Shown here one piece after another: positions 6,858-63,654 of a stretch of 64,000 nucleotides of DNA. Positions within the stretch are counted from its first letter, which is position 1; each line of letters starts with the position of its first letter. The DNA comes from an uncultured Candidatus Rokubacteria bacterium (GTDB lineage Bacteria > Methylomirabilota > Methylomirabilia > Rokubacteriales > CSP1-6). A program made the position numbers and the translations under genes. The stretch is from positions 160,001-224,000 of the forward strand of contig CAVXJS010000011.1 of NCBI GenBank assembly GCA_963762145.1. Reading direction: 5' to 3'. The notes under the pieces were generated by a model. That model saw nothing but the letters and a program-made list of their open reading frames with translations. It had not been told where the DNA came from and searched no databases.

Positions 6858-6858
6858 C

Positions 6859-20480: not shown

Positions 20481-23400
20481 ATGATCTATCTCAAGCATGT
20501 CGAGGGAAGCAAGCGCGGCCAGGTCGAGGAGTTCGATCTCGAGCGCATTCGCATCGGACGCCACCCCGACAACGATCTGAAGTTCGATCCCGGTGCGGAC
20601 CGGGAGGTCTCCGGCCACCACGCCGAGATCCTCTGTCAGGGAGAGCAGGTCTCGATCCGCGATCTCCAGAGTCGCAACGGCACCCTGGTCAACGGGCGCC
20701 GGATCAATCAGACGACGGTCCTCCGGCACGGGGACGCCATTCAGTTCGCGCCCACCGGCCCCAAGGTCATCTTCTCGCTGGGCGAAGCCGAGTCGGGCAC
20801 CGGCACGATGGTGATCGATCGCGATCAGGTCGTCGCCGCATCCCGGTCGGCCCCCGAGCCGGCGGCCCCGGCCGCGTCCCGGCCCTCGGCCGCGCCGCGC
20901 CGGAAGACCTTCGTGCTGGCCGGCTTGATCGTGGTGCTCCTGCTGGTGGTCGCGCTCCTCGCCGTCGCCGCTTGGCGCTCGTGGACCCTCTTCTTCGTGC
21001 TCCTGGGTGTGGTCGTGCTCCTGGCCATCGCGGGCGCGGTCACGTGGTGGTGGACGCGGAAGCGTGCCGGGACCGCGGCGTCGCACGCCGACGCGAGCCG
21101 GCGGGCCGGCGACGAGCCCGGTCCCGCGCCGGGCGAAGCGACCGGGGACACGATCCGGGAGCTGCGGGCGAAGTGGAGCCAGGCCCTGGCCCGGCTGCGC
21201 GGCTCCAAGCTCGGGGGGCCGGACGACGACGCGGTGGGGGCGCTGCCGTGGCTCGTGGCGCTCGGCGAGCGCGGATCGGGGAAGAGCGAGCTCATCAGGG
21301 CCGGCAATCCGCCGGCGTCCGTCTCGACGGTCCGGCAGGCGGTCTCGGGGACCCGAACGTGCGACTGGTGGTTCTTCGACGGCGCCGTGATCCTCGACAC
21401 GCCCGGACGGTATGCCTTCCCGGTCGACGCGCGGGGCGACGGGCGTGAGTGGGAGGAATTCCTCTCGCTGCTGCGCGGCGCGCGACCGGTCGACCCCCTC
21501 AACGGCGTCATCGTCACGGTGGCGGCCGACTCCCTCGCGGCCCGGTCGGCCGCGAGCCTCAAGGACGAGGCCACCCAGATACGCCGGCGGCTCGACCACC
21601 TGACCCGGCGGGTGGGAGTGAGACCGCCCATCTATCTGGTCGTGACCAAGATCGACCTGCTGGCCGGCTTCCGGGAGTTCTTCGCCGACGTGCCCGAGGC
21701 GCACCGCAGCCAGGCCATGGGCTGGGTCAGCGAGGACGGGCGTGAGGAAGCCCCGGGGAGCCTCTTCGTCCGGGCGGTCGACACCGTCGCCAGACAGCTC
21801 GATCGCCTGCGCCTCTCCGTCCTGGACCGACGGGACACCGATGCGCAGGTCGGGCGCCGGTTCCTGTTCCCCGAGGAGTTCCGGGCCCTCGCGCGACCCC
21901 TCCATGCCTTCGGCGAGGCCCTGCTTCGCGCCAATCAGTACGATGAGACTCCCTGGTTCCGGGGCGTGTTCTTCACCTCGGCGCCGGGCGACGGGGCGCC
22001 CTCCTCGTACCTGGCCCGGACCCTGGGCCTGGAGGACGGCGTGCCGTCGGCGGGGTCGCGCGCGGCCGGCTCCCTCTTCGTCCGCGATCTGTTCGGCGCG
22101 ATCCTGCCGAAGGACCGCGAGCTGGTGCGGCGCACCGGAGCCACGCGCCATCGCCACCGTGGCGGCCGCCAGAAGGCCCTCTACGCCGTCGGCGCCGGCG
22201 CGGCGGTCCTGTCGCTGTTGCTGACGGTCTCCTTCGTCCGGAACTCGCGGGCTCTCGCCCGCCTCGACGTGAGCCCCTGTCTCGGGTCGGCGGGATCCGC
22301 CGCGGGCGCCACGCTGGGCGGCCGCCTCGAGCGCCTCGACCGGTGTCGGAACACGCTGGCGACGCTCGTACCCCACGGCTTCTGGGCCCGCGCCACGACC
22401 GACTTCTGGCTCCGTCAGGCCGAGCGTCTCGAGGGCCCCATCGCACGCCGGTACGTGGAGGTATTCAAGGTCGAGGTCGAGGGGCCGATCGATGGAGCCG
22501 TCGATCGCGCGCTCGCGCCGGGGCCGAAGGCCCCCGTCGTCGTCGGCGCGGTGCTCCAGCGGATCGCGCTGGTCGGCCGATGCCGGACCGACGGCCGCTG
22601 CCCGACCGACGACGCCGGCGCCTGGCCCAGCTATCGCACGCTCCTCGGCGCCGCGGAGCCCAGGGCCCAGGACAACGAGGAGACCGTGAAGGCCCTCCGG
22701 CGGACTCACGCCGCGTACCTGGAGCTGCACGCCGATCCCGCTGCCCTCGACGAGATGCGCGCCCGCGACGTGGCCCGCGTCAGTCGATGGCTGAGCGCGG
22801 GCGGGTTGCGGACCGAGTGGGTCCTCGCGTCCGCCACCAGTCAGTTCGCGCCGGTGCGCTCGCGAGATTTCTGGGCGTGGGACGGTCCGCTCCAGGTCGA
22901 CGCGCCGTTCACCGGCCGGGCCTGGGGCGAGGCCATCCAACCGCTGACGCAGGGCCTGCGAGCCCTCGCGCCGAACGCGGCCGACGTGCGTGACGCGGTC
23001 GCGCGATTCGAGAACGACTACCGCACCGAGGCACTGCGTCAGTGGGGGCAGTTCCTGATCGGCTTCCCGCAGGAAGAGCGGGTGCTGGGCGGGCGGCGCG
23101 GGTCGCGCGATCTCGCGGTGCGGTCCCTCGAGGCGGAGTCGCCGTATCGACGCGTGCTCGACCAGGCCGCCGCCGATGTCGGCGCGATCGTCGGCCCGGC
23201 TCGCGGCGACGCCGACCTGCCGGCCTGGGCCGGCACGCTGCTGCGCTACGCGGCGCTGCGCAAGATGGCGGCGAGTCCGCCGCCCGCGCCCGGACAGAGG
23301 CCGGCCGACCCGAAGGCGCAGCCCACGGAGGCCGAGCGTCTGGCGATGGGGTACGTCAAGGGATACGGCGAGGCCCTGGATCAGCTCAAGGGCGAGCTGG

Positions 23401-23885
23401 GCGGTCCGGAGAAGGCCTACGCCTCGGTTCAGAAGGTGTTCGACGAGGGAGAGTCGAGCGAGCGGAGCGTGCACCCGGTGCACAAGACCCTCTGGAATCT
23501 GCGCGCCCTCCGCAACCAGATCGGCGCGCGTCAGGGCGACGACCGCATCGTGTGGGATCTGCTCTCCCGGCCGGTCACCCTGGTGTGGCGGACCATGCTC
23601 GGGGAGGCCGCTCAGCAGGTGCAGGGCGTGTGGGAGGCGATGATTCCGGGGCTCACGGGTCTGACCCCGGGCCTCCAGGCCACCCGGATCATCGAGTTCG
23701 CCAACACCGGGCCCGCGGGGCCGCTACTCGAGCGGTCGAGAGATCGGTACGTGGTGCGCCGCTTCCTCGGGGAGGGCGCCCCGCTGTCACCGGGCTTCGT
23801 CGATTTCATCTCGCGCATTCGCACGATGCCGGTCGAGCGCCTGGACAAGATCGACCCGCCACGCCTCATCGTCACATCCTCATGA
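20481..23885 (+). CDS. tssM: FHA domain-TssM/IcmF fusion (T6SS membrane complex)
   Basis: FHA motifs IGR..S.HH..SRNGT; 2 TM; LPW, GERGSGKS, CDWWF, DTPG, PLNG, YLVVTKIDL..GF.EFF, RGVFFTS; third TM. Confidence 0.85.
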   Translation: MIYLKHVEGSKRGQVEEFDLERIRIGRHPDNDLKFDPGADREVSGHHAEILCQGEQVSIRDLQSRNGTLVNGRRINQTTVLRHGDAIQFAPTGPKVIFSLGEAESGTGTMVIDRDQVVAASRSAPEPAAPAASRPSAAPRRKTFVLAGLIVVLLLVVALLAVAAWRSWTLFFVLLGVVVLLAIAGAVTWWWTRKRAGTAASHADASRRAGDEPGPAPGEATGDTIRELRAKWSQALARLRGSKLGGPDDDAVGALPWLVALGERGSGKSELIRAGNPPASVSTVRQAVSGTRTCDWWFFDGAVILDTPGRYAFPVDARGDGREWEEFLSLLRGARPVDPLNGVIVTVAADSLAARSAASLKDEATQIRRRLDHLTRRVGVRPPIYLVVTKIDLLAGFREFFADVPEAHRSQAMGWVSEDGREEAPGSLFVRAVDTVARQLDRLRLSVLDRRDTDAQVGRRFLFPEEFRALARPLHAFGEALLRANQYDETPWFRGVFFTSAPGDGAPSSYLARTLGLEDGVPSAGSRAAGSLFVRDLFGAILPKDRELVRRTGATRHRHRGGRQKALYAVGAGAAVLSLLLTVSFVRNSRALARLDVSPCLGSAGSAAGATLGGRLERLDRCRNTLATLVPHGFWARATTDFWLRQAERLEGPIARRYVEVFKVEVEGPIDGAVDRALAPGPKAPVVVGAVLQRIALVGRCRTDGRCPTDDAGAWPSYRTLLGAAEPRAQDNEETVKALRRTHAAYLELHADPAALDEMRARDVARVSRWLSAGGLRTEWVLASATSQFAPVRSRDFWAWDGPLQVDAPFTGRAWGEAIQPLTQGLRALAPNAADVRDAVARFENDYRTEALRQWGQFLIGFPQEERVLGGRRGSRDLAVRSLEAESPYRRVLDQAAADVGAIVGPARGDADLPAWAGTLLRYAALRKMAASPPPAPGQRPADPKAQPTEAERLAMGYVKGYGEALDQLKGELGGPEKAYASVQKVFDEGESSERSVHPVHKTLWNLRALRNQIGARQGDDRIVWDLLSRPVTLVWRTMLGEAAQQVQGVWEAMIPGLTGLTPGLQATRIIEFANTGPAGPLLERSRDRYVVRRFLGEGAPLSPGFVDFISRIRTMPVERLDKIDPPRLIVTSS

Positions 23886-23907: not shown

Positions 23908-25245
23908 ATGACGCAATCGGGCAAGGTCGTATGGGGTGAGGGCATGTTCCTCACGCCCCATCTCTTCCAGCAGGCGGATCGCCATCACGAGCACGTGCTC
24001 GACTTCCGGCTGCGCGCGGTCGTTCCGTTCGGCTGGGGCTTCGTCGAGCTGGAGCTGGACGACGAGGCGGTGACCAACGGCGACATCGCGGTTCGGCGCT
24101 GCGCGGGCGTGCTGCCGGACGGGCTCGTCTTCCAGGTGCCGCAGCCCGACCGCGGCCCGAGCAGCCGCTCGATCAAGTCGCACTTCTCCGTCTCGACCGA
24201 CCGCGTGTCGGTCTACCTGGCGTTGCCGGTGGTCCGCGAGGGGACGAACGTGCGCCTCGACGGCGCGGGAGGCGGGCCGCCCACGCGATACGAGACCGAG
24301 ATGGTCCGGGTCGCGGACGAGACGGCCGAGGACAACGAAGGCGAGATCCCGTTCGCGCGGAAGAACTTCCGGCTGCTCTTCTCCGGCGAGGCGCTCGACG
24401 ACACCGTCTCCATGAAGCTGGGGGAAGTCACCCGGACCGAGTCGGGGGCGTTCCGGCTGTCCGAGTCGTTCGTGCCCGCCTCGCTGACGATCCGCTCGTC
24501 TCCCCGGCTTCTCGCGATGCTGCGCGAGGTGCTGGAGCTGCTGAGCGCCCGGAGCACCTCCCTCGGGTCCCAGCGACGCCATCTCGCCGACTTCTCGCAG
24601 TCCGACATGGCCACGTTCTGGCTCCTGCACACCGTCAACTCCTGGATCCCGCTGCTCGCCCACATCGCGGCGTCTCCCGACCATCATCCCGAGCGGGTGT
24701 ACGTGGCGTTCGCTCAGCTCATCGGCCAGCTCTCGAGCTTCGCCCTCGACAGCGATCCCCGGGACGTGCCGGTGTACGACCACGATCGCCTGGGCGACGT
24801 CTTCAGCGAGCTGGTCCGCCGGATCCGCACCCTCCTCGACACGGTCATCCCGATCCGGTACGTGATCATCCCGCTCGTGCGGACCCGGGACCTCCTGCAC
24901 GTGGGGCGGGTCGAGGACGAGCGGCTGCTCCAGACCGCCCAGTTCTATCTGGGGGCGGACGCCAAGATGCCCGCCGGCCGGCTCGTGGAGGAGCTTCCCG
25001 CCAAGTCCAAGATCAGCTCCCCGGACCACGTCGGCGACCTGATCGGGCGCGCGGTGCCCGGGGTGGAGCTGCTGCACGAGCCGGTCCCGCCGGCCGCGAT
25101 TCCGGTGCGCGCGGGCTTCAAGTACTTCCAGCTGAGCCGGCACGGGCGCGCGTGGGAAGCCATCAACCGGGCCAAGGCGCTGGCGCTGTATCTGCCCGAT
25201 GACTTCCCGGAATTGAAGCTTGAATTAGTCGCTATAAAGTCGTAG
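23908..25245 (+). CDS. tssK: T6SS baseplate subunit TssK
   Basis: VVWGEGMFL.PH.FQQ.DR, G..PDG, HPE..Y, YDHD, YFQL. Confidence 0.95.
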   Translation: MTQSGKVVWGEGMFLTPHLFQQADRHHEHVLDFRLRAVVPFGWGFVELELDDEAVTNGDIAVRRCAGVLPDGLVFQVPQPDRGPSSRSIKSHFSVSTDRVSVYLALPVVREGTNVRLDGAGGGPPTRYETEMVRVADETAEDNEGEIPFARKNFRLLFSGEALDDTVSMKLGEVTRTESGAFRLSESFVPASLTIRSSPRLLAMLREVLELLSARSTSLGSQRRHLADFSQSDMATFWLLHTVNSWIPLLAHIAASPDHHPERVYVAFAQLIGQLSSFALDSDPRDVPVYDHDRLGDVFSELVRRIRTLLDTVIPIRYVIIPLVRTRDLLHVGRVEDERLLQTAQFYLGADAKMPAGRLVEELPAKSKISSPDHVGDLIGRAVPGVELLHEPVPPAAIPVRAGFKYFQLSRHGRAWEAINRAKALALYLPDDFPELKLELVAIKS

Positions 25246-25303
25246 GTTAGGCTACCTTGAGCGCGGCACCGAGCGGCTTGCCACAGGCGGGATAGAGGCG
25301 CCG

Positions 25304-26386
25304 ATGTCCTCACCGGAGACCGTCGATTTCGAGTCGCTCCTCGCCCCCATTCCCGGGGACAAGCCGGGGGGAGAGTCCATCCGCTATGCCGGCCCCTACG
25401 ACGCGATCGAGGACGCACGGCGGGCCGACGACGAGCTGACCCAGGGGGACTGGCAGCGCGACACGAAGACGTCGGACTGGCGCCGCGTCGTCGATCTCGC
25501 GGGCGACGCGCTCTGCAAGCGCAGCAAGGATATCCAGGTCGCGGCGTGGATGACCGAGGCGCTCATCCGCCTGCACGGCTTCGCCGGCCTGCGCGACGGC
25601 AGCCGCCTCCTGCGCGAGCTGAGCGAGCGATTCTGGGACCATCTCCATCCCGAGGCGGAGGGGGACGATCTGGAGGGCCGCGCCGGGCCCATCGAATGGA
25701 TGAACCAGCGCCTGCCCGAGGCGGTGCGCTTCGTGGCGATCGCTCAGTCGAGCCAGGGAGACAAGTACGGGTGGTGGCACTGGCAGGAGTCCCGCTCCGT
25801 CGACAACCTCGGCCGGACCAACCCGGAGGCGAAGGCCGCCGCGCTGGCCGAGGGGAAGATCTCGGGCGAGGATTTCGACAAGGCGGTGGGGACGCTCCGG
25901 CGCGTCCACTACGAGCAGGTCTTCGCGGACGTCACGCAGGCGGGCGAGCAGATCCAGGCCTTGATCGCGGAGGTCGATACCCGCTTCGGACGGAACGCGC
26001 CGAGCCTCGTCGCGCTGAAGCAGGCCGCCGAGGACTGCCGCGCGCTCGTCGAGACGATCGTCAAGCGGAAGCGGGAGCTCGAGCCCGACGCGGCGACGAG
26101 CGAGGCCGCGCCGGGCGAGGAAGCGCCCAGCGCGACGGGCCGCCGGGGCGCCGCCCTGGGCGATCGAGCGGCCGCGCTGCAGCAGCTCGCCGAGGTCGCG
26201 GCGTTCTTTCGCCGCACCGAGCCGCACAGCCCCGTGTCCTATCTGGTACAACGAGCCGTGCAGTGGGGGCACATGCCGCTGGAGAACTGGCTCCGTGACG
26301 TCATCAAGGACGAGACCGTCCTGGCCAATCTCCGCGATACGCTGGGTCTGAAGGAAGGGGCTCCGGGGGCGGACAGCGCTCCCTAG
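25304..26386 (+). CDS. tssA: T6SS TssA (ImpA)
   Basis: LLAPIPGD.PGG, SKDIQVA.W, FWD.LHP, FFRRTEPHSPVSYL. Confidence 0.93.
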   Translation: MSSPETVDFESLLAPIPGDKPGGESIRYAGPYDAIEDARRADDELTQGDWQRDTKTSDWRRVVDLAGDALCKRSKDIQVAAWMTEALIRLHGFAGLRDGSRLLRELSERFWDHLHPEAEGDDLEGRAGPIEWMNQRLPEAVRFVAIAQSSQGDKYGWWHWQESRSVDNLGRTNPEAKAAALAEGKISGEDFDKAVGTLRRVHYEQVFADVTQAGEQIQALIAEVDTRFGRNAPSLVALKQAAEDCRALVETIVKRKRELEPDAATSEAAPGEEAPSATGRRGAALGDRAAALQQLAEVAAFFRRTEPHSPVSYLVQRAVQWGHMPLENWLRDVIKDETVLANLRDTLGLKEGAPGADSAP

Positions 26387-26414
26387 AGCCTGAGTTCACC
26401 AAGGAGGAGTTGCC

Positions 26415-26944
26415 ATGGCGCGAGAGAGTACACAGCACAAGCTGGACCGTGTAAGGCCGCCGCGGGTGCAGATCACCTACGACGTCGAGACGGGTGACGC
26501 GATCGAGATGAAGGAGCTACCCTTCGTTCTCGGCGTGCTCGCGGACCTGTCCGGGAAGCCCGAGGAGCCCCTGCCACGCCTGAGGGACCGCAAGTTCGTC
26601 GAGATCGACCGCGACAACTTCGACGCGGTGATGCGCGGCATGAAGCCGCGCCTGGCGTTCCGGGTCGACAACAAGCTCAGCGACGACAACACCCAGATGG
26701 CCGTCGAGCTGAAGTTCAACTCGCTCGAGGACTTCGAGCCGGAGCAGGTCGTCCGGCAGGTCGAGCCCCTCCGCAAGCTGCTGGAGACGCGCCAGCAGCT
26801 GCAGGCGCTGCTGGCCAAGATGGACGGCAACGACAAGCTGACGACAAGCTGCAGGAGATCATCAGCAACACCGACATGCTGAAGAAGATCGGCAGCGAGG
26901 TCGGGGCGGGCGAGGACGGGAAGGAGGGCCGGGGCAATGGCTAA
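26415..26944 (+). CDS. tssB: T6SS sheath small subunit TssB (frameshift near 26845)
   Basis: RPPRVQITYDVE, ELPFVLGVLADLSG, DFEP; C-terminus continues in another frame to TAA 26944. Confidence 0.92.
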
Positions 26945-28427
26945 CGAGGCGAAGGGCGCCAAGTCCCAGTCGGCCGAAGCGGCCAGTCAGGAAGCGAGCC
27001 TGCTCGACCAGGTCATCGGCCAGACCCGCTCGCGCAACGACGAGCAGCGCGAGGAATCCCGGCGGCAGATCTCGACGCTGGTCGAAGAGGTGATGCAGGG
27101 CACTGAAGATCTCGAAGGATCTCGAGACCACGATCAATGCCCGCATCGCGGAGATCGATCAGCTCCTGACCAAGCAGCTCAACGAGATCCTGCACCAGCC
27201 GGAGTTCCAGAAGCTGGAGGCCTCGTGGCGCGGGCTGCACTACTGGTGCACGAGAGCGAGACCGAGCACGATGCTCAAGATCCGCGTGCTCAACGTCTCG
27301 AAGGAGGACCTGCTCCGCGACCTCGAGCGCGCGGTCGAGTTCGACCAGAGCGCGCTCTTCAAGAAGGTCTACGAGGAGGAGTACGGCACCTTCGGCGGCG
27401 CCCCCTTCGCGGCGCTGATCGGCGACTACGAGTTCTCGCGCGACGAGCCCGGACATCGGCGCTGCTCGAGAAGATCTCGAACGTGGCGGCGGCGCGCCCA
27501 CGCGCCGTTCATCGCCGCGGCCGCGCCCGAGCTGTTCAACCTGGACAGCTTCACCGAGCTCGACCGCGCCGCGCGACCTGGCCAAGATCTTCGAGAGCGT
27601 CGAGTACGCCAAGTGGAAGTCGTTCCGGGAGTCCGAGGACTCCCGCTACGTGGGCCTGTGCCTGCCCCACATCCTGATGCGCCTGCCCTACGGCCCCGAC
27701 ACGATCCCGGTCGAGGCGTTCAACTTCGAGGAGGACGTCGACGGCCGCGACCACAGCAAGTACCTGTGGGGCAACGCGGCCTACGCGCTGGCCACCCGGC
27801 TCACCAGCTGCCTTCGCCAAGTACGGCTGGTGCGCGGCCATCCGCGGCGTGGAGGGCGGCGGCCTGGTCGAGGGCCTGCCGACCCACACCTTCCAGACCG
27901 ACGAGGGCGACGTCGCGCTGAAGTGCCCGACCGAGATCGCGATCACCGACCGGCGCGAGAAGGAGCTGGCGGACCTCGGGCTTCATCCCGCTGGTGCACT
28001 GCAAGGGCACCGACTACGCGGCGTTCTTCGGCGCCCAGTCGGCGCAGAAGCCGAAGAAGTACGACACCGACGCGGCCAACGCCAACGCGCGGCTCTCGAC
28101 GCAGCTGCCGTACATCCTGGCGATGTCGCGCTTCGCCCACTACCTGAAGGCGATCATGCGCGACAAGATCGGCAGCTTCATGTCCCGCGCCGACGTGCGA
28201 GTACTTCCTGAACCGCTGGATCACGAACTACGTGACCCTCGACGACGACGCCAGCCCGCCTCAAGGCCCAGAAGCCGCTGCGCGAGGCGCGGATCGAGGT
28301 GTCCGAGGTCGCCGGCAAGCCGGGGGTGTACCAGGCGGTGGCGTTCCTGCGGCCGCACTTCCAGCTCGACGAGCTGTCGGTGTCGCTGCGGCTGGTGGCC
28401 GAGCTGCCGCAGTCGACGCGCAAGTAG
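26937..28427 (+). CDS. tssC: T6SS sheath large subunit TssC (multiple frameshifts)
   Basis: FQKLEASWRGL, YEEEYGTFGG, RLPYG, YLWGNA, CPTEIAITDRRE, SRFAHYLK, FLRPHFQL pieces across frames. Confidence 0.92.
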
Positions 28428-28464
28428 TGTTCACAACTCACGTACGGGAGGCGGAGGCGAGAAA

Positions 28465-28950
28465 ATGGCCGCGGTAGACTACTTTCTGAAGCTCAAGGGA
28501 ATCGATGGTGAGTCGGAGGACTCGAAGCACAAGGCCGAGATCGACGTCGAGTCCTGGTCGTGGGGCGAGTCCAACTCGGGCACCCACTCCGGCGGCGGCG
28601 GGGGCGGCGCCGGCAAGGTGGCGATGCAGGACTTTCACTTCACGATGAAGGTCAACAAGGCGTCACCGAAGCTGTTGCTGGCCTGCGCCAACGGGGAGCA
28701 CATTGCGGACGCGAAGCTCACCTGTCGCAAGGCCGGCAAGGAGCAGCAGGAGTACCTGATCTTCAAGTTCACCGACCTGCTGGTCTCCTCGTACCAGACC
28801 GGTGGTTCTCACGGCGATCTGGTGCCGACTGACCAGATCTCCTTGAATTTCGCGAAGGTCGAGGTGGAGTACAAGCCGCAGAACACCGACGGTTCGCTGG
28901 GCGGCTCGATCAGCGCCGGCTACGACCTGAAGAAGAACAAACAGGTCTGA
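28465..28950 (+). CDS. hcp: T6SS tube protein Hcp
   Basis: FLKL.GI.GES.D..H..EI, KASPKL, SLNFAK, GYDLK.N; GGAGG RBS. Confidence 0.96.
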   Translation: MAAVDYFLKLKGIDGESEDSKHKAEIDVESWSWGESNSGTHSGGGGGGAGKVAMQDFHFTMKVNKASPKLLLACANGEHIADAKLTCRKAGKEQQEYLIFKFTDLLVSSYQTGGSHGDLVPTDQISLNFAKVEVEYKPQNTDGSLGGSISAGYDLKKNKQV

Positions 28951-28967
28951 TCCCTCCGGAAGAGGAT

Positions 28968-29001
28968 CGGAACCGGCGCGTCGGGAGACGCGCCGGTTCC
29001 G
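28968..29001 (+). terminator. 15-bp stem with GNRA loop after hcp (stabiliser or partial terminator, no U-tract)
   Basis: CGGAACCGGCGCGTC-GGGA-GACGCGCCGGTTCCG. Confidence 0.6.
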
Positions 29002-29016
29002 GCCATTCAGGGCCCA

Positions 29017-29763
29017 ATGTCGCCGCGACGCCAGGACGAACCGAACATCGTGCCGTCCGTGCTGGATCGGTTGCTGGGCGACGAGCGGAGATCGGCTCGC
29101 CCGCAGCTGTCCGCCGACTCGGAGCTGGACGCGCTATGGGTTCGCCTGCTCGACGCGGCCGCCACCCGGCTCCGGCCGGAAGTGATCGACGCGTGGGTGC
29201 GGCCGTGTCGTCTCCTCGCGGTGGAGGGTGATCGGTGGCGCGTCGTGGTCCCCGACCGTCTGCTTCGCGACCGTCTCGTCCAGAGCTACCAGGAGGCCCT
29301 CCAGGACTCCGCGGCTGACGTCGCGGGGGGCAAGGTCCGTCTCGCCTTCAGCGTCGACACCGCCCTCGGCAGCTACGGGATCCGGGAGCTCAAGCGGGCG
29401 GTGGCCCGGGACCTGGAGGCCTTGCTCAACACCCGGCAGGAGGCGCTCGACGAGCTGCCGGAATCGCTCGAGGAGGTCCGGCGCTCACTCGTCACCTACG
29501 GCCTGCCGGACTTCACCGCGGCGAGCCTGCAGAGCTCGCGTGACCGGGCGCGCATCCGCCGCGCTCTCGAGGACACCATCGCCGCCTTCGAGCCCCGCCT
29601 GGACCGGGTCCGCATCGAGCTCGAGGACTCCGAGGGCAACGAGCGGGCGATGCGCTTCCGCGTCGAGGGCTGGTTGCGCCTCGAGCCCACGCCGGAACCG
29701 GTCGCCTTCGACACGGTGCTGCAGCTCACCACCCGCGAATATACCGTGCAGGGCCGGGACTGA
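29017..29763 (+). CDS. tssE: T6SS baseplate TssE (gp25-like) with inserted DnaA-N-terminal-like domain
   Basis: PSVLDRL, RDLEALLNTR, YGLPD, FEPRL, FDT; about 80-aa insert at residues ~37-114. Confidence 0.88.
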   Translation: MSPRRQDEPNIVPSVLDRLLGDERRSARPQLSADSELDALWVRLLDAAATRLRPEVIDAWVRPCRLLAVEGDRWRVVVPDRLLRDRLVQSYQEALQDSAADVAGGKVRLAFSVDTALGSYGIRELKRAVARDLEALLNTRQEALDELPESLEEVRRSLVTYGLPDFTAASLQSSRDRARIRRALEDTIAAFEPRLDRVRIELEDSEGNERAMRFRVEGWLRLEPTPEPVAFDTVLQLTTREYTVQGRD

Positions 29764-31574
29764 TGGCCGACGAGATCCTCACGTACTACGAGCGGGAGCT
29801 GTCCTTCCTTCGGCAGACCGGGGCCGAGTTCGCGGCGAGCTATCCCAAGATCGCCAGCCGCCTGCTCCTGGAGGCGGACAAGTGCGAGGACCCCCACGTC
29901 GAGCGCCTGATCCAGGCGTTCGCGTTCCTGGCCGCCCGCATCCGCTACAAGCTCGACGACGATTTCCCCGAGATCACCGACTCGCTCCTCAGCGTGCTGT
30001 ACCCGCACTATCTCGCTCCGGTGCCGTCGATGGCGATCGTGCAGTTCGTCCTGGACGCCGAGCGCGGAAAGCTCACCGAGCCGTTCCGCATCGCCCGGGG
30101 CGCGAAGCTCTTCTCGCCGCCGGTGAGCGGCGCGCCGTGCCGGTTCCGCACCGCCTACCCGGTGACGCTGTGGCCCTTGACCGTCACCTCGGCACGCCTG
30201 GGCGCGGCCGACGGCCTCGGCGCCTCCAAGCGGGCGGTCTCGGTCATCCGTCTCGGCCTGCGTGCCCAGGGGGGCACCTCGATCGCCGGGCTGCGTCCAG
30301 AAGCGCTGCGCTTCTTCCTGCACGGGGAAGGGCACCAGACCTGGCCGCTGTACGAGCTGCTCTGCAACAACGTCCGCGAGGTGCATCTCCGTCCCGGCGC
30401 CGGGCGCCCCGCCCCGCCGATCCGCCTCGGGCCCGAGTGCATCCGGCCGGTGGGCTTTGCCGCCGACGAGGGGCTGCTGCCGTACGGCCCCCGGTCCTTT
30501 CTCGGATACCGGCTCCTGCACGAATACTTCGCGTTTCCCGAGAAGTTCCTCTTCGTCGACGTGACCGGTCTGGACGCCGCCGCGAAGGCGGGCTTCGGGG
30601 AGGAGCTCGAGATCCTGATCTTCCTCGACCACATGCCGCAGCTGGGCGACGTCGTCGCGCCGAGCACGTTCCGCCTCGGCTGTGTGCCGGTGGTCAACAC
30701 CTTCGAGCAGATCGCCGAGCCCATCCGGGTGAGCCAGACCGACTCGGAATACCGGGTGGTGGTCGACGGGCGACGGCAGGATGCCACCGAGGTGTACTCG
30801 GTGGATTCGGTGGTGAGCGTCTCCCCCGACGACCCGCAGCCACTCGTCTACCGTCCGTTCTACTCGTTCAAGCACGAGATGGACCAGGACCAGCAGCGGA
30901 CCTTCTGGTACGCCACCCGCCGCGCATCCGATCGCAAGGGCGACGCGGGCACCGAGGTGTACCTGTCGCTGGTGGACCTGGACTTCAAGCCATCGAGACC
31001 GCCCGCCGATACGCTCACCGTGCACGTGACCTGCACGAATCGCGATCTGCCCGCCCGGCTGCCGTTCGGGGGCGAGCGCGGCGTGCTCGAGCTGGAGGGG
31101 GCCGCGCCCCTGTCGCGGATCCTCTGCCTGACGAAGCCGACCACGGTGGCCCGCCCGCGCATGGGCCGGGGCGCCCAGTGGCGCCTGATCTCTCACCTCT
31201 CCCTGAACTACCTGTCGATCTGCGACGGCGGCCGCGAGGCCCTGCAGGAGATCCTGCGACTGTACGACTTCTCGGGCTCCCCGGTCGTGCGGCAGCAGAT
31301 CGCGGGCATCCTCGACGTCAGGAGCCGCCGGGTGGTGGGCCGTCCGGGCTCGATGCCCTGGAACGGCTTCTGCCGCGGCCTCGAGGTGACCGTCGATCTC
31401 GACGAGGAGCAGTACGTCGGCACCGGCGTCTACCTGTTCGCGTCGGTGCTCGAGCGGTTCTTCGGCCTGTACTCGTCCCTCAACTCGTTCACCCAGCTCG
31501 TCGCGCGGACCCGTCAGCGCAAAGAGCCCCTCAAGCGATGGCCTCCGAGAGCCGGCGAACAGATCCTTCTGTAG
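29763..31574 (+). CDS. tssF: T6SS baseplate TssF
   Basis: YYEREL.FLR..G.EFA..YPKIA.RL, DPHVERL, EYFAFPEKF, WRLISHLSLNYLS, NSFTQL. Confidence 0.96.
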   Translation: MADEILTYYERELSFLRQTGAEFAASYPKIASRLLLEADKCEDPHVERLIQAFAFLAARIRYKLDDDFPEITDSLLSVLYPHYLAPVPSMAIVQFVLDAERGKLTEPFRIARGAKLFSPPVSGAPCRFRTAYPVTLWPLTVTSARLGAADGLGASKRAVSVIRLGLRAQGGTSIAGLRPEALRFFLHGEGHQTWPLYELLCNNVREVHLRPGAGRPAPPIRLGPECIRPVGFAADEGLLPYGPRSFLGYRLLHEYFAFPEKFLFVDVTGLDAAAKAGFGEELEILIFLDHMPQLGDVVAPSTFRLGCVPVVNTFEQIAEPIRVSQTDSEYRVVVDGRRQDATEVYSVDSVVSVSPDDPQPLVYRPFYSFKHEMDQDQQRTFWYATRRASDRKGDAGTEVYLSLVDLDFKPSRPPADTLTVHVTCTNRDLPARLPFGGERGVLELEGAAPLSRILCLTKPTTVARPRMGRGAQWRLISHLSLNYLSICDGGREALQEILRLYDFSGSPVVRQQIAGILDVRSRRVVGRPGSMPWNGFCRGLEVTVDLDEEQYVGTGVYLFASVLERFFGLYSSLNSFTQLVARTRQRKEPLKRWPPRAGEQILL

Positions 31575-32647
31575 AAGAGCTCCTCTTCGACGAGGGGTTC
31601 CGGTTCGAGTTCTTCCAGGCGGTGCGCCTGCTGGAGCGGGTGTTCCCGGAGCGCGGGCCGGTCGGGCGCGACGTGCGCCCGGGCGAGGAGATCGTCCGGT
31701 TCCGGGCGCACAACTCGCTGACCTTCCCGCCCAGCTCGATTCACGATCTGTCCCGCACGGACGGCGAGGGGCCCGCCTCGATGGTCGTCGCCTTCATGGG
31801 GCTGACGGGTCCCTCGGGCGTGCTACCCCGGCACTACACCGAGATGGTGCTCGAGGAGGAGCGGCGCCGCGAGCACGGCCTCGCCGGCTTCTTCGACGTC
31901 TTCAATCACCGGATGATCTCTCTCTTCTACCGCGCGTGGCAGAAGTATCGCGTTCCGATCGCTCACGAGCAGGCGCGCCGGCCGGGGGCGGCGCCGGACC
32001 CGTTCACCGAATCGCTGTTCGCCCACTTCGGCATGGCGACGGGCGGGCTCCGGGGTCGGCAGCGGGTCGAGGATCAGGGCTTCGTCTTCTATGCCGGGCT
32101 GCTCGCCCAGCAGCCCCGCTCCGCGAGCGCGCTCGAGGGGATGATCGCCGACTACCTCGCGGTGCCGACCAAGGTCGGGCAGTTCGCCGGGCAGTGGCTG
32201 CCGCTGGTGGAGGAGAACCGGTCGCGCGTCGGGCGAGCCGGCCGGCCCGGAGAGGATGATCGCGGGGCCCACAATGTCCTGGGACGTACCGCGGTCCTCG
32301 GCAAGCGGTTCTGGGACCAGCAGGCCGGGTTCCGGCTGCGCCTGGGTCCCATGGGCTATGCCGAGTTCCTGGAGCTCCTGCCCCTGGGCTCTCGATTCCG
32401 GGTGCTCGTGCAGATGACCCGCTTCTTCGTGAGCCAGGGGCTCGACTTCGACGTGCAGCTCGTCCTGAAGGGCGAGGACGTTCCCGTGTGCCGGCTGGGC
32501 GACCGGGGGCCGGGCGCTCCCCGCCTCGGCTGGTCCACCTGGCTCGGGGGAGGCGTGCGCGCGCGAGATGTCGACGACACCGTCCTGGGCCACCGCTGGA
32601 CTCGTGGCGTGCTACCCGATCGTGAATCCGTGAGGAGAGCCGCATGA
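31538..32647 (+). CDS. tssG: T6SS baseplate TssG
   Basis: FEFFQAVRLL, FMGLTGPSGVLP.HYTE, FDVFNHR..LFYRAW.KY, LGWSTWL. Confidence 0.95.
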   Translation: MASESRRTDPSVEELLFDEGFRFEFFQAVRLLERVFPERGPVGRDVRPGEEIVRFRAHNSLTFPPSSIHDLSRTDGEGPASMVVAFMGLTGPSGVLPRHYTEMVLEEERRREHGLAGFFDVFNHRMISLFYRAWQKYRVPIAHEQARRPGAAPDPFTESLFAHFGMATGGLRGRQRVEDQGFVFYAGLLAQQPRSASALEGMIADYLAVPTKVGQFAGQWLPLVEENRSRVGRAGRPGEDDRGAHNVLGRTAVLGKRFWDQQAGFRLRLGPMGYAEFLELLPLGSRFRVLVQMTRFFVSQGLDFDVQLVLKGEDVPVCRLGDRGPGAPRLGWSTWLGGGVRARDVDDTVLGHRWTRGVLPDRESVRRAA

Positions 32648-35317
32648 ACGTCACCCTGAAAGCCCTGGTCGCGAAGCTGAACGACACCTGCCGCGCCGCC
32701 CTCGAGGGCGCCGCCGGACTGTGTCTGACCCGGACCCACTACGACGTCGACGTCGAGCATTTCCTCGTGAAGCTCTGCGAGGCGCCGAACGCGGACACCA
32801 CGCGCATCATCAAGCACTACGGCGTGGATCCGGGCAAGCTCGCGACGGGTCTCAATCGAGCCCTCGACCGGCTGAAGACCGGGAATGCCCGCACCCCCAC
32901 GCTGGCGCCGCGGATCACGCGCTGGCTCAGCGAGGCGTGGACGCTGGCGTCCGTGGAGCTGGGGGCCTCGTCGCTGCGCTCCGGGCATCTGCTCCTGGCG
33001 CTGCTCTCCGAGCCGGACCTCGCCCGCCTGGCCGCGGAGTCGAGCCCCGAGCTCGCCAAGATCTCGGTCGAGGACCTGACCAAGCGCTTCGGGGAGCTGA
33101 CCGCCGGGTCGGCCGAGGACGCCTACCAGGCGCCCAGCGTGGTGGACGGGGCGCCGGCCGGGACGGCCGGCGGGAAGACGCCCGCGCTCGACCAGTACAC
33201 CGTCGACCTCACCGCGCGGGCCCGCCAGGGCGAGATCGACCCGGTGCTGGGGCGGGATTTCGAGATCCGGCAGCTCGTCGACATCCTCACACGCCGGCGG
33301 CAGAACAATCCCATCCTCACCGGTGAGGCCGGCGTCGGGCAAGACCGCGGTGGTGGAGGGCCTCGCGCTCCGCATCGCGGCGGGCGACGTGCCGCCGCCC
33401 CTGCCGCCACGGTCGCGCTGCGCACGCTGGACCTGGCGCTGCTCCAGGCCGGCGCCGGCGTGAAGGGCGAGTTCGAGAACCGGCTCAAGTCCGTCATCGC
33501 CGAGGTGAAGGCCTCGCCGCAGCCGATCATCCTGTTCATCGACGAGGCCCACACCATGATCGGCGCGGGCGGCCAGGCCGGGCAGGGCGACGCGGCCAAC
33601 CTGCTCAAGCCGGCGCTGGCGCGCGGCGAGCTGCGCACGATCGCGGCCACCACCTGGTCCGAGTACAAGAAGTACTTCGAGAAGGATCCCGCGCTCGCGC
33701 GGCGGTTCCAGGTCGTGAAGGTGGAGGAGCCGGCGGAAGCCCAGGCGGTCGGGATGATGCGCGGGCTCGTCGCCATGCTCGAGCAGCACCACAACGTCCG
33801 CATCCTCGACGAGGCGGTCGAGGAGGCGGTGCGGCTGTCGCATCGCTACATCTCCGGGCCGGCAGCTTCCCGACAAGGCCGTGAGCGTGCTCGACACCGC
33901 GTGCGCCCGTGTCGCCCTGGGCAGGTTTCGACACCACCCGCCCTCGAGGATTGCCAGCGCCTGATCGCGCGGATCGAGACCGAGATGACCATTCTCGAGC
34001 GCGAGGCGATCACCGGAGGCGAGAGCCGGGAGCGTCGGGACGAGCTGTCCAAGCAGAGCACGGAGGCGAAGACGCGGCTCTCCGAGCTCGAGGCGCGATG
34101 GCAGCAGGAGCGGCGCCTGATCGAGGAGCTGCGGGGCATCCGGACCAAGCTCGAGGCCCACGCCACGGCGGCGAAGGTGGATGCCGGCCTCGGCCCCGGT
34201 CGAGGGGCGGCTATCCGATGAGGAGCTGGCCAAGCTCCAGGCCGACCTGCCGCGGCTCAACAAGGAGCTGGCCACCGTCCAGGGCGAGGCTCCGCTCATG
34301 CAGGTGTGCGTGGACGGCCAGGCGGTGGCGGAGGTCGTCTCCGGCTGGACCGGCATCCCGGTCGGCAAGATGGTCAAGGACGAGATCCAGACCGTGCTCT
34401 CCATCAAGGACCTGATGGAGCGGCGGATCATCGGCCAGGCGCATGCCCTCGAGGCGATCGGCCGGCGGATCCAGACCGCGAAGGCCAAGCTGGAGGATCC
34501 CCGGCGTCCCCGGCGGTGTTCCTCCTCGTGGGGCCGAGCGGGGTCGGCAAGACCGAGACCGCGCCACACCCTGGCCGACCTCCTCTACGGCGGCGATCGC
34601 AACATGGTCGTCATCAACATGTCCGAGTACCAGGAAGGCCACACCGTCTCGCGCCTCAAGGGCTCGCCGCCCGGCTACGTGGGCTACGGCGAGGGCGGCG
34701 TGCTCACCGAGGCGGTCCGGCGGCGGCCGTACAGCGTCGTCCTCCTCGACGAGATCGAGAAGGCGCACTCGGACGTGATCGAGCTCTTCTACCAGGTCTT
34801 CGACAAGGGCACGCTGGAGGACGGCGAAGGCCGGGAGATCGACTTCAAGAACACGGTCATCATCATGACCTCCAACGTGGCCACCGACCTGGTCATGAAG
34901 CTGTGCGCGGACCCGGCGCGGACGCCGGACCCGGACGAGCTGATCGAGAAGATGCGGCCCGCGCTCCTGCGCGCCTTCAAGCCCGCCTTCCTGGGCCGGG
35001 CGATCGTGGTCCCGTACTACCCCATCGGCGACGAGGCCATGCGGCGGATCATCGAGCTCCAGCTCGGCCGCATCCGTACCCGCCTGCAGGAGAACAACCG
35101 GGTGCGCTTCACCTACGACGACGCGCTCGTCGCCGAGATCGCGCGCCGGTGCACCGAGGTGGAGTCGGGCGCGCGCAACGTGGACCACATCCTGACCCGC
35201 ACGCTGCTGCCCGAGATCTCCCGGGAGTACCTTTCCCGCATGGCCTCGGAGGCCAGCATCTCCCGGGTCCACGTGAGCGTGGACGAGGGCGGTCGTTTCG
35301 GCTACCAGATCGACTGA
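32644..35317 (+). CDS. tssH: T6SS AAA+ ATPase ClpV/TssH (several frameshifts)
   Basis: RRRQNNPIL.GEAGVG, FIDEAH, ATTW.EY..YFEKD.AL.RRFQ, PPGYVGYGEGG.LTE, LDEIEKAH. Confidence 0.93.
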
Positions 35318-37233
35318 TGGCGAAATACATCCAGGCGAACCGGCCGATCTCGGTCACCACCCCGCTGGGCCCGGACGTGGTCCTCCTCACCGGGGTGCGG
35401 GGGGAGGAAGGCCTGTCGCGCCTGTTCCGGTTCGAGCTGGAGCTGATCGCGGAGGATCCGCTGAAGGTCGTCTTCGACAAGCTGCTCAGCGGTCGGGTGA
35501 CCGTGCTCCTCAAGCTCGACGACAAGCGCGAGCGCTACTGGAGCGGGATCTGCAGCCAGATCGGCGAGGTGGGGCGCGACGTGAGCTTCACGCACTACCG
35601 CCTCGAGATGGTGCCGCAGCTCTGGCTCCTGACCCGGCGGGCCCAGAGCCGCATCTTCCAGAACCTGAGCGTGCCCGACATCCTGCGCAAGGTCCTCACC
35701 GGCCTCGACGTGACGTGGGAGATCCAGGGCACCTTCCATCCGCGCGACTACTGCGTGCAGTATCGCGAGACCGACTTCAACTTCGCCTCCCGGCTGATGG
35801 AGGAAGAAGGGATCTACTACTTCTTCAAGCACGGCAAGGACGAGCACAAGATGGTGGTGGCCAACACCCCCACGAGCCATCCCGACATGCCCCTGGGGAG
35901 CCGGATCATCTTCGACGAGACGGTCCGCGACCGGCTGGACGACTTGCGGATCAGGAGCTGGCACAAGAACCAGTCGCTGACGTCCGGAAAGGTCACGCTG
36001 TGGGATCACTCCTTCGAGCTCCCGCACAAGCACCTGGAAGGGGTGGGCACGATCCAGGACACGGTGGCCGCGGGCAAGGTGGTCCACAAGCTGAAGGTCG
36101 GAAACAACGAGCAGCTCGAGCTCTACGACTTTCCCGGCGAGTACGCCCAGCGCTTCGACGGGGTGGACCGCGGCGGCGCGGACCGGCCGGCGGATCTGGA
36201 GAAGATCTTCGAGGACAACTCGCGCACCGCGAAGATCCGGATCCAGGAGGAGGCGGCGGGCGGGCTCATCGTCTCCGGCTCGGGCCTGTGCCGGAACTTC
36301 GTGAGCGGCCACAAGTTCACGCTGGAGCGCCACTACGACGGCGACGGCGTGTACGTACTGACGAGCATCCAGCACCGGATCACGATGGCGAGCGCCGACT
36401 ATCGCTCCGGCTCCGACGGCCAGTTCGAGTACGGAAACGCGTTCACCTGCATTCCCTTCGCGCTGCCGTACCGGCCGCCGCGGTCGACCCCGAAGCCGGT
36501 GGTGCCGGGGCCGCAGACCGCGGTGGTGGTGGGGCCGTCGGGCGAGGAGATCTACCCCGACAAGTACGGGCGGGTGAAGGTTCAGTTCCACTGGGACCGG
36601 GAGGGCAAGGCCGACGCGGAGAGCTCCTGCTGGATCCGGGTGACCCAGAGCCACGCCGGCAAGGGCTGGGGCTCGATCTTCATCCCCCGGATCGGCCAGG
36701 AGGTCCTGGTGGCCTTCGAGGAGGGCGACCCGGACCAGCCGGTCATCGTCGGATCGCTCTACAACGCCCAGGAGATGCCGCCCTACCGCCTGCCCGACGA
36801 GAAGACCAAGACCGTCCTGTTCAAGTCGAACACCAGCAAGGACGGCGGCGGCCACAACGAGATCCGATTCGAGGACAGCGCGGGATCCGAGCAGATCTAC
36901 ATCCACGGCGAGAAGGATCTCGACGTGCGAATCAAGGACGCGGTGCGGGAGTCGATCGGGGGTAATCAGCACCTCACCGTCGAGGGTACCCTCAACGAGG
37001 AGGTCAACCAGAGCTGGTACCAGAAGACCACGATGAGCATCGTCATCGAGTCCGGCATGGAGCTGACCATCAAGTCGTCCGGCGGCTTCATCAAGATCGA
37101 TCCGAGCGGCGTGACGATCATGGGCACCATGGTCCGCATCAACAGCGGCGGAGCGCCGGGGATGATCCCGATCGGACCCGACGGCGCCGACGACAGCGAC
37201 CCGGGCGCGGTCGATCCGCCGCTCAACCCCTGA
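35317..37233 (+). CDS. vgrG: T6SS spike VgrG (no C-terminal extension)
   Basis: CVQYRETD.NF.SRL.EEEGI, GPQTAVV, D.YGRVKVQFHWDR, PRIGQEV.V.F..GDPD.P. Confidence 0.96.
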   Translation: MAKYIQANRPISVTTPLGPDVVLLTGVRGEEGLSRLFRFELELIAEDPLKVVFDKLLSGRVTVLLKLDDKRERYWSGICSQIGEVGRDVSFTHYRLEMVPQLWLLTRRAQSRIFQNLSVPDILRKVLTGLDVTWEIQGTFHPRDYCVQYRETDFNFASRLMEEEGIYYFFKHGKDEHKMVVANTPTSHPDMPLGSRIIFDETVRDRLDDLRIRSWHKNQSLTSGKVTLWDHSFELPHKHLEGVGTIQDTVAAGKVVHKLKVGNNEQLELYDFPGEYAQRFDGVDRGGADRPADLEKIFEDNSRTAKIRIQEEAAGGLIVSGSGLCRNFVSGHKFTLERHYDGDGVYVLTSIQHRITMASADYRSGSDGQFEYGNAFTCIPFALPYRPPRSTPKPVVPGPQTAVVVGPSGEEIYPDKYGRVKVQFHWDREGKADAESSCWIRVTQSHAGKGWGSIFIPRIGQEVLVAFEEGDPDQPVIVGSLYNAQEMPPYRLPDEKTKTVLFKSNTSKDGGGHNEIRFEDSAGSEQIYIHGEKDLDVRIKDAVRESIGGNQHLTVEGTLNEEVNQSWYQKTTMSIVIESGMELTIKSSGGFIKIDPSGVTIMGTMVRINSGGAPGMIPIGPDGADDSDPGAVDPPLNP

Positions 37234-44330: not shown

Positions 44331-45494
44331 ATGGCCGCGACCCCGCCCGCAAAGCCCGCCGACACGCCGGCTCGATCCGGCACGCCGCTGCGCCACGTCT
44401 TCACCGACCTGATCGCCTACGCGCTCCTGTTCCGCGAGAGCTGCGCGGAGCGTACGTGGACGCCCGCGGAGCTTCGAGATCGCCTGACCGCGCTCATCGA
44501 CGCTCAGGAGCGCCGGGCGCGTGGCGGTGAGGTCTCCTGGGATTCCTACGTCGAGGCGCGCTACGCGGTCCTGGCGTGGGTCGACGAGCTGATCATGAAC
44601 TCGCCCTGGCCGCACCGGGGCGACTGGCCGCATCTGATGCTCAAGTACTACGGCACGCTCAACGCGGGGAAGCAGTTCTTCGAGCGGATCGAGCAGCCGC
44701 CCGCCACCGAGCGCGACGTGATGGAGATCTACTACTTCTGCCTGGCCCTCGGGTTCGAGGGGAAGTTCGCCCTGGCGGAAAACCCGCGGACTCTGTCGGA
44801 GCTCAAGCAGCGGCTTCACAACCAGCTCGTCGCGGCGGGCGGGGGCGTGCACCTCTCCGAGGCCCGCCTCTTCCCCGAGGCCTACCGGCGTCCCCCTGCT
44901 CCCGCCCCGCCTCCGGGACGGTCGTGGTTCGGCCTCTGGCTCGGGCTGATCGTGGCCGTGCCGATCATCCTCTTCGTCGTCTACCTGTCGCTGCTCCGAT
45001 CCGCTGCCGACGCACGCATCAGGATGCTCACGCAGCCGGTGGCGCCGGCACCGGTCGTGATTCCGGGGTGGAACCTGACGCTGGTCGAGGAGCTGCGGCG
45101 CCGCGGGGTGGACGCCCGCGACACGCCACGGGGGGTGGTGATCACGCTGCCCGGCGTCTCGTTCGAGGTGAACCGCTCCGAGCTCAACCCGGCGGGAGAG
45201 CGGAGCGTCCGGGATGTGGCGGCGGCCCTCCTGCGCCTGGCTCCCGAGCGCCACGTGGCCGTCGAGGGGCACGCGAGCCGGGAGAAGGGCACCCTGGACG
45301 AGCAGAATCAGCGCCTGTCGGACGAGCGGGCCCGGCGGGTCGGCGAGGTCCTCCTGGAGTCGGGGCTCCGGCGCGACCGGATCACCTCCCGGGGGCTCGG
45401 CTCGAGCACCCCGGTGGCGTCCAACGAGACCGAGGACGGGCGTCGCCTCAACCGACGGGTGGAAATGACCGTAGAAAAGGTAGATGGGCGATAA
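44331..45494 (+). CDS. tssL: TssL/DotU-OmpA fusion
   Basis: YA.LAWVDE, AG..FF, E.YY.CLALGF.GK, TM, VEGH..N..LS..RA..V, NRRVE. Confidence 0.93.
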   Translation: MAATPPAKPADTPARSGTPLRHVFTDLIAYALLFRESCAERTWTPAELRDRLTALIDAQERRARGGEVSWDSYVEARYAVLAWVDELIMNSPWPHRGDWPHLMLKYYGTLNAGKQFFERIEQPPATERDVMEIYYFCLALGFEGKFALAENPRTLSELKQRLHNQLVAAGGGVHLSEARLFPEAYRRPPAPAPPPGRSWFGLWLGLIVAVPIILFVVYLSLLRSAADARIRMLTQPVAPAPVVIPGWNLTLVEELRRRGVDARDTPRGVVITLPGVSFEVNRSELNPAGERSVRDVAAALLRLAPERHVAVEGHASREKGTLDEQNQRLSDERARRVGEVLLESGLRRDRITSRGLGSSTPVASNETEDGRRLNRRVEMTVEKVDGR

Positions 45495-45602
45495 TGGGGG
45501 CCGGCCTAGCGAATAACTTTGCGTAGCCCGAGTTTCCCATGGTACTTAGCTTTGCGCCGGTATGCCGTGCGTAGGTCAGAACCCTCGGGAGGAAAGCTGC
45601 CG

Positions 45603-63640: not shown

Positions 63641-63654
63641 GAATGCCTCCGGGC

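Follow-up and report, generated by a model that had tools for sequence, protein, structure and literature searches.

Described systems and the present locus

In the T6SS (type VI secretion system) of enteroaggregative Escherichia coli (EAEC) TssJ attaches to TssM at its beta-rich C-terminal part (PMC3213119; papers given by PMC or bioRxiv number are cited here for their excerpted text). The TssM described below is encoded in a T6SS island of the window, that is, the whole stretch of 64,000 nucleotides analysed (contig CAVXJS010000011.1, positions 160,001 to 224,000, of an uncultured Candidatus Rokubacteria bacterium). Like its counterpart in the EAEC TssJLM complex (6IXH, 4Y7O) it has three transmembrane (TM) segments, a cytoplasmic P-loop domain, a helical periplasmic domain and a TssL partner. 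Unlike that protein it carries an additional FHA domain and linker and lacks the beta-sandwich, and its cluster is without tssJ.

With the PpkA-pTssL-Fha pathway of Agrobacterium (Lin et al. 2014, PMC3953482) the locus shares a long TssL-OmpA protein with a threonine-containing N-terminal tail, an adjoining kinase gene, and the FHA arginine and serine used for phosphothreonine. It appears to differ in having no family-wide TssL acceptor; in Agrobacterium, moreover, Fha is a separate protein and the TssM-TssL complex forms irrespective of phosphorylation (PMC3953482). In Pseudomonas, Serratia and Acidovorax Fha is a substrate of PpkA (PMC13584744, PMC12607579), and Acidovorax Fha drives the formation of TssL/TssM foci without TssJ (bioRxiv 2023.12.21.572528). 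The features in common with these PpkA-PppA-Fha systems (TagE/G/H) are a membrane-bound Hanks-type kinase, a PP2C phosphatase (in the related loci L002 and L039) and an FHA protein possibly carrying its own acceptor threonine. Unlike them, the FHA domain lies within TssM and not in a soluble protein, tagF gave no match, and the kinase has a terminal BON domain.

A membrane complex lacking TssJ has reportedly been described from Acinetobacter by Kandolo et al. in 2023. The Acinetobacter T6SS cluster resembles ours in the absence of tssJ, but its TssM keeps the beta domain, has a GS-linker and works with TsmK and TslA, whereas the window TssM has lost that domain and acquired FHA (PMC10564176). 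An FHA fold with a nearby disordered threonine peptide in the same chain is known from Bdellovibrio DgcB, where the domain binds the self peptide (PMC6733907), from mycobacterial GarA, and from Rv1747, in which the linker is phosphorylated (PMC8339232); here the output would differ, being a secretion-system scaffold, and the threonine follows the FHA domain after about 10 residues. No description of an FHA-TssM fusion, or of a truncated or TssJ-less TssM of this kind, was found in the titles, abstract openings and passages searched, a body of literature mostly outside the subscription journals and exclusive of supplements.

Our results point to a T6SS lineage in its own right, whose TssM is altered at both ends: an FHA domain with a threonine-bearing linker would have been gained, the TssJ-binding beta-sandwich lost, and tssJ is missing from the cluster. 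At the level of sequence and predicted structure we regard as established the fusion, the intact phosphothreonine-binding residues, the deletion, the lack of a local tssJ and the linked kinase and phosphatase genes. With the phospho-switch that these parts would form, the reading as a whole stands, in our estimation, at about an even chance. It touches two open questions about the onset of T6SS assembly: the way in which Fha and threonine phosphorylation bring it about, and the status of TssJ as an obligatory initiator. Since this natural fusion places reader, candidate acceptor and scaffold in one chain, two or three purified proteins would be enough to test the step. The lineage goes beyond Acinetobacter, where TssJ is absent and the domain kept, in that the TssJ-binding domain itself is gone, which prompts one to ask by what means the membrane complex passes through the outer membrane. 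Surveys demanding tssJ or IcmF_C would rate such systems incomplete.

The FHA-TssM fusion

As stated in the initial annotation, the FHA domain precedes the first TM region of TssM (from about residue 141) in one uninterrupted open reading frame (ORF; Table 1). The frame contains no internal stop, its G+C content at third codon positions is 0.82–0.98 over the first 1100 codons, the FHA-TM junction included, and an independent homolog at 86% identity aligns with it over the full length in a single frame. Pfam searches identified FHA [PF00498, residues 23–89, E 2.4e-19, 70 bits against a cutoff of 20.7] and IcmF-related_N [residues 319–563, E 1.2e-64]. Downstream of the linker the protein possesses the TM hairpin, P-loop IcmF-N domain, third TM helix and helical periplasmic domain of TssM (IcmF) proteins, and in the fused sequences the Walker A residues G262 and K268 are conserved in 59/59 and 56/59, respectively. 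In an AlphaFold model built from a 51-row alignment, residues 768–1134 superpose on residues 575–1109 of EAEC TssM [6IXH_P; Z 14.6, root mean square deviation (rmsd) 5.6 over 316 residues]. The protein scores 298.8 against TIGR03348, under the cutoff of 388.15, as does the unfused full-length TssM of locus L020 (335.2). A sequence search of the PDB retrieved FHA domains only and no TssM, while Foldseek returned 6IXH at rank 45. The Atlas search yielded ordinary TssM clusters at 0.85, none with FHA; small clusters lie outside that search, which therefore has no bearing on novelty.

The fusion is not restricted to the window. FHA and IcmF-N occur together in 54 of 95 homolog clusters (clusters at 90% identity; the best 8000 candidates were scored), at 34–99% identity, and the full fusion is present in three of the 80 kept GTDB loci: L001 (NC10), L002 (titled Deltaproteobacteria) and L039 (Methylomirabilota). 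These display the same gene order (FHA-tssM, tssK, tssA, tssB, tssC, hcp) and, together with the window, are the four loci on which all statements about gene context rest. A fragment 95% identical to the N-terminus of the window protein (P0365) also carries a Methylomirabilota label, so that the window is probably to be placed in that group. In trees computed without the FHA domain or C-terminal tail the fused proteins form one clade, with a support of 91 in FastTree (33 of 110 rows) and 89 in a quick IQ-TREE analysis (14 of 35 rows), both below the 95 mark; its neighbours are TssMs largely from Thermodesulfobacteriota. Automated annotation already labels such proteins “ImpL” or “FHA domain-containing.”

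Table 1. Features of the fha-tssM gene and of the T6SS island in the window
Feature	Position	Strand	Evidence or remark
fha-tssM fusion gene	20481..23885	+	1134 aa, one ORF; first gene of T6SS island
FHA domain, residues 1–100	20481..20780	+	Pfam; AF2 pLDDT (predicted local distance difference test) >90; structural match; conservation
Disordered linker, residues 101–140	20781..20900	+	T107, T109 (T109-M-V-I; codon 20805–20807); candidate phospho-acceptor, phosphorylation putative
TM1 + TM2 hairpin, residues 141–199	20901..21077	+	Hydropathy; helices in AlphaFold model
Cytoplasmic P-loop (IcmF-N) domain	21135..22130	+	Walker A GERGSGKS at residues 262–269
TM3 helix, residues 553–594 (hydrophobic core 565–587)	22137..22262	+	Hydropathy and model
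Helical periplasmic domain	22263..23825	+	AlphaFold model
Site of missing C-terminal beta-sandwich	23826..23882	+	Short loop from last helix to retained terminal P-x-x-I-V strand
tssK, tssA, tssB, tssC, hcp (28465), tssE, tssF, tssG (31538), tssH, vgrG (35317)	23908..37233	+	No tssJ
Hanks-type Ser/Thr kinase	42536..44329	+	TM and periplasmic BON domain; kinase motifs intact
tssL fused to OmpA-like peptidoglycan-binding domain	44331..45494	+	N-tail T4, T12, T18
Short autotransporter-type beta-barrel gene, directly after tssL	45519..46814	+	Likely start 45603; T6SS link is a candidate one

Loss of the C-terminal beta-sandwich and absence of tssJ from the cluster

The fused proteins are without the C-terminal beta-sandwich of ~133 aa (IcmF_C, the TssJ-binding region), which is absent from both the model and the alignment. 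Among 179 unfused proteins 134 reach the end of the fused-protein profile, and 126 of these run at least 100 residues further (median 136); the eight exceptions comprise five N-terminally partial sequences, two short-tailed ones (P0242, P0278) and P0219. That the 55 full-length fused proteins share their end at the profile end is in part built into the profile; what carries information is the extension in the unfused proteins together with the alignment, where a common closing P-x-x-I strand is seen in fused and unfused proteins alike. HHalign pairs the extension with canonical IcmF_C-bearing termini [96.4%], and a tail model from 19 unfused loci forms a beta-sandwich at 187–305 and resembles EAEC TssM [6IXH, Z 15.7, rmsd 5.1 over 291 residues; 4Y7O, Z 12.3]. 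The initial annotation was right about the N-terminal fusion and silent on this missing domain.

Our own TssJ hidden Markov model (HMM) found no tssJ in the window, L001, L002 or L039. Since this HMM missed the TssJ of Zoogloea at E<1e-5 (E 3.1), Pfam was rerun for the window only, and again no tssJ was found among its 145 ORFs of 105–350 aa (the last open ORF, at 63643, being left out), although the L035 positive control was recovered. By comparison, tssJ is present in 27 of the 28 unfused loci whose upstream sequence extends to at least 3.5 kb, 26 by our HMM and L035 by Pfam; nine of the 37 unfused loci were too short to be counted. As to a replacement for TssJ or the beta domain, five window proteins compared with the TssJ and tail profiles gave HHalign probabilities of at most 2.2%, and for one lipoprotein (41522–42400) the Atlas search gave only leads under 0.8.

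The FHA domain and the linker threonine

The FHA domain superposes on those of DgcB and GarA [Z 17.9, rmsd 1.0–1.1 Å]. The motifs G26-R27, SGHH (44–47) and N66-G67 noted in the initial annotation were confirmed, and over 59 fused sequences the phosphothreonine-binding residues are almost invariant (R27 and H47 59/59, N66 58/59, S44 57/59), which supports the view that the fused domain has been under selection for phosphothreonine binding. It scores 31.6 against the TagH/Fha model TIGR03354 (cutoff 120.25), with no match to the FHA_C domain, and a second FHA domain was not found in the window. Two Desulfuromonadales T6SS loci whose TssM is unfused carry stand-alone tandem-FHA genes upstream of tssJ (L004, 3440–4387, and L032, 3402–4364), the former locus also having a weak T6SS_FHA_C match at 6488–7234. 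As candidate donors of the fused domain these tandem-FHA genes match it with an E-value of 4.6e-18, yet the FHA domains of certain OmpA and Yip1 proteins are closer.

The linker, with pLDDT values <50 at residues 103–143 of the model, contains the sequence GTMVI reported in the initial annotation, at residues 108–112, and T109 lies about 10 residues C-terminal of the last FHA strand. Defined as Thr-x-x-[IVLMF] within 30 residues after FHA, the linker motif occurs in 47 of the 59 fused proteins as against 16.9 +/- 3.3 (maximum 30) in shuffled sequences, which ignore relatedness. After dereplication it remains in 11/17 at 60% identity (shuffles 4.5) and 6/9 at 50% (shuffles 2.2), both small sets.

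Similar Thr-x-x-hydrophobic sites occur in the juxtamembrane region of the window kinase, at T328 (TLVV) and T350 (TMQV). One of the L002 kinases has four such sites, TIAL twice among them, a word found also in some TssM linkers. L002 encodes within 10 kb two kinases 54–56% identical to that of the window, a PP2C phosphatase, tssL (which overlaps the PP2C gene) and tagJ; L039 has PP2C and a kinase beside the fused locus.

Proposed mechanism

We propose that the membrane kinase autophosphorylates its juxtamembrane Thr-x-x-hydrophobic sites, upon which TssM would dock through its FHA domain; the kinase would then phosphorylate the linker threonine of TssM (T109 in the window protein), and FHA domains binding phosphorylated linkers would cluster or activate the membrane complex. 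PP2C would presumably reverse the linker phosphorylation. Because T109 is so close to the last FHA strand, the contact is more likely to be made between neighbouring TssM subunits than in cis. In FHA domains the termini are on the side facing away from the binding loops, which tells against binding of T109 in cis. The fusion would thus unite on TssM the reader of Fha and its phospho-acceptor and could replace TssJ in starting assembly, with TssL-OmpA supplying the cell-wall anchor.

The changes at both ends point to a T6SS switched on from inside the cell. One might go further and suggest a TssJ-free lineage in Methylomirabilota and related uncultured groups that has traded its grip on the outer membrane for a cytoplasmic phospho-sensor, with strictly inside-out assembly by kinase-triggered cross-linking of FHA domains and linkers and an undescribed route across the outer membrane, possibly the barrel encoded after tssL; this wider proposal is a tentative one, and to our minds doubtful as a whole.

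Several observations weigh against such a switch, or against the exchange of one end for the other. The linker motif is absent from 12 of the 59 fused proteins, including the L039-like group (P0036–P0038), and the T109 column is threonine in just 35 of 59 aligned rows. Similar linker motifs are found in FHA-capped OmpA, trypsin and SLT proteins, so that motif and FHA may be a generic module and not a T6SS-specific switch. PP2C was not found in the window, and L001 shows neither a kinase homolog nor PP2C within 10 kb. The search for tssJ covered the window and the fetched loci, and the gene could sit elsewhere in these genomes. P0219, a TssM of 1000 aa that has neither FHA nor beta domain and branches as sister of the fused clade, could represent either an intermediate or an incomplete record. 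It suggests that loss of the beta domain may predate FHA and be independent of it; if P0219 is complete, the beta domain was lost first and FHA gained later, and a strict trade-off is weakened. Finally, tssB, tssC and tssH of the window are frameshifted, either through assembly indels or through decay.

Alternative explanations

The initial annotation had the kinase phosphorylate the N-terminal tail of TssL and the fused FHA bind it in cis, in effect the Agrobacterium pathway with Fha hard-wired to TssM. We consider this unlikely, though worth retaining. In its favour, the kinase gene ends 1 nt before tssL, to which the annotation had described it as coupled, and in L002 tssL overlaps the PP2C gene. 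The kinase-tssL pair belongs to a transcription unit of its own, ~19 kb downstream from where tssM ends. The three Thr-Pro sites of the window TssL (T4, T12, T18) are likewise present, but as a conserved target they do not hold up: in the 110 tails that reach 12 residues or more (of 122 rows, 12 were dropped; the best 120 of 297 matches were aligned, among which only the TssL of L002 is shown beside a fused TssM) there are three Thr-Pro in two, two in 12, one in 30 and none in 66. The T18 column, directly before the first DotU helix, is mostly asparagine (Asn 55, Thr 34, Ser 7) and looks like a helix N-cap, and Thr-x-x-hydrophobic is depleted (20/110 tails against 44 in shuffles).

Some threonine is nevertheless found in 95 of the 110 tails, and 27 of 32 close homologs retain T18. 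The acceptor site of Agrobacterium TssL is pT-V-V-E (PMC3953482), and since this has glutamate at +3, a hydrophobic residue there is not obligatory; with the retention of T18 in close homologs this leaves TssL a possible target. The further suggestion that phosphorylation gates TssL-TssM docking runs counter to the very precedent cited for it, docking in the Agrobacterium text being independent of phosphorylation (PMC3953482). As the TssL triplet is not conserved, and the linker motif is conserved and recurs in the kinase, docking on the kinase followed by linker phosphorylation appears likelier than binding of phospho-TssL, and the likeliest phosphorylation target shifts from TssL towards the TssM linker and the kinase. 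Phospho-control as initially envisaged thus keeps the fusion, the selection on FHA, the kinase and PP2C genes adjoining two of the three fused loci and the enrichment of linker threonine, but loses the TssL triplet; its self-linker branch fares better than its TssL branch, with linker phosphorylation itself still putative.

Many TssL homologs (P0133–P0212) have longer tails with a conserved, amphipathic-helix-like S/T-W-x-x-K-G-x-x-T-I/L-x-R-M, absent from the window TssL.

No more probable than phospho-TssL binding is that FHA, linker and TM form a portable kinase-tethering cap, which would place TssM at kinase foci or bind some other phosphoprotein (e.g. a baseplate subunit) without any conformational switch. 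The same FHA subfamily, 55–61% identical over the matched part, caps OmpA (P0370, P0374) and Yip1 (P0375, P0377, P0378) proteins, and more distant FHA domains cap trypsin and SLT proteins; residues 7–138 of Myxococcus GltG match the FHA region weakly [1.9e-7, far below the cutoff]; and the N-terminal domain of Acidovorax Fha pulls down TssE, not TssL (bioRxiv 2023.12.21.572528). Against this, the fusion is kept in one clade across the whole identity range given above together with the enrichment of linker threonine, and a pure tether would presumably need no acceptor site of its own. By eye, the OmpA domain of the two FHA-OmpA proteins resembles that of the window TssL.

It is very unlikely, in our view, that a complex without TssJ and beta domain simply fails to reach the outer membrane, the system being in decay or repurposed for periplasmic or inward delivery and its FHA domain incidental. 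The frameshifted genes and the lack of a matched replacement for TssJ or the beta domain among the five window proteins compared would fit this explanation. So would the need for a route across the outer membrane: the window encodes a TonB-dependent receptor, which together with the beta-barrel gene shows that the cell has an outer membrane to cross. However, L001, L002 and L039 each have tssB and tssC as unbroken single ORFs, the shared end point and retained terminal strand of the 55 full-length fused proteins are unlike decay, and Acinetobacter secretes without TssJ (PMC10564176).

That a sequencing or assembly artefact joined separate fha and tssM genes, for which indels elsewhere in the window and one short match (P0372, 128 aa, on a 241-kb contig) ending within the linker might be adduced, has next to no probability and is refuted by the occurrence of the full fusion in 54 independent clusters from several sources, in three GTDB loci and in the end-to-end homolog, relatives which rule out the error considered in the initial annotation: the fusion is genuine. 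A search for shorter forms gave 81 matches, of which 18 were inspected; eight were FHA domains on other proteins and ten close copies of the window N-terminus, and apart from P0372 all of the latter are N-terminal fragments or frameshifted copies of the fusion.

The T6SS island and flanking genes

The island is bounded by tsaE (16601) and a dihydroorotate dehydrogenase gene (50874). All 12 subtype i core genes apart from tssJ are present (tssA, B, C, D, E, F, G, H, I, K, L, M). In the tssB/tssC region (26415–28424) the tssB frame shifts at about 26843 and tssC lies in four pieces in three frames; tssH (32644–35317) is split into at least two ORFs. The beta-barrel protein encoded after tssL has a short N-terminal part and a terminal phenylalanine, and no homolog was found in the 80 fetched loci.

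TssE (29017–29763) has an N-terminal insert with a weak match to DnaA_N [3.5e-4, below cutoff]. Flanking the cluster on the minus strand, the lipoprotein (41522–42400) and a DUF4384 protein (19208–20239) have in common a 77-residue domain (42% identity), which matched neither TssJ nor the beta domain of TssM. A lipoprotein with Sel1 repeats and a caspase domain is encoded at 17064–19211 (−), and its homologs adjoin the tssM loci L039 and L004. Possible cargo or accessory genes are an unknown ORF of 173 aa right after vgrG (37260–37781, −) and a calpain-family protease-like ORF (48244–49140, −). The island further contains two methyltransferase genes and an unknown ORF (37822–39324, −; 39365–40030, +; about 40041–41400, −) with homologs in L001 and L002.

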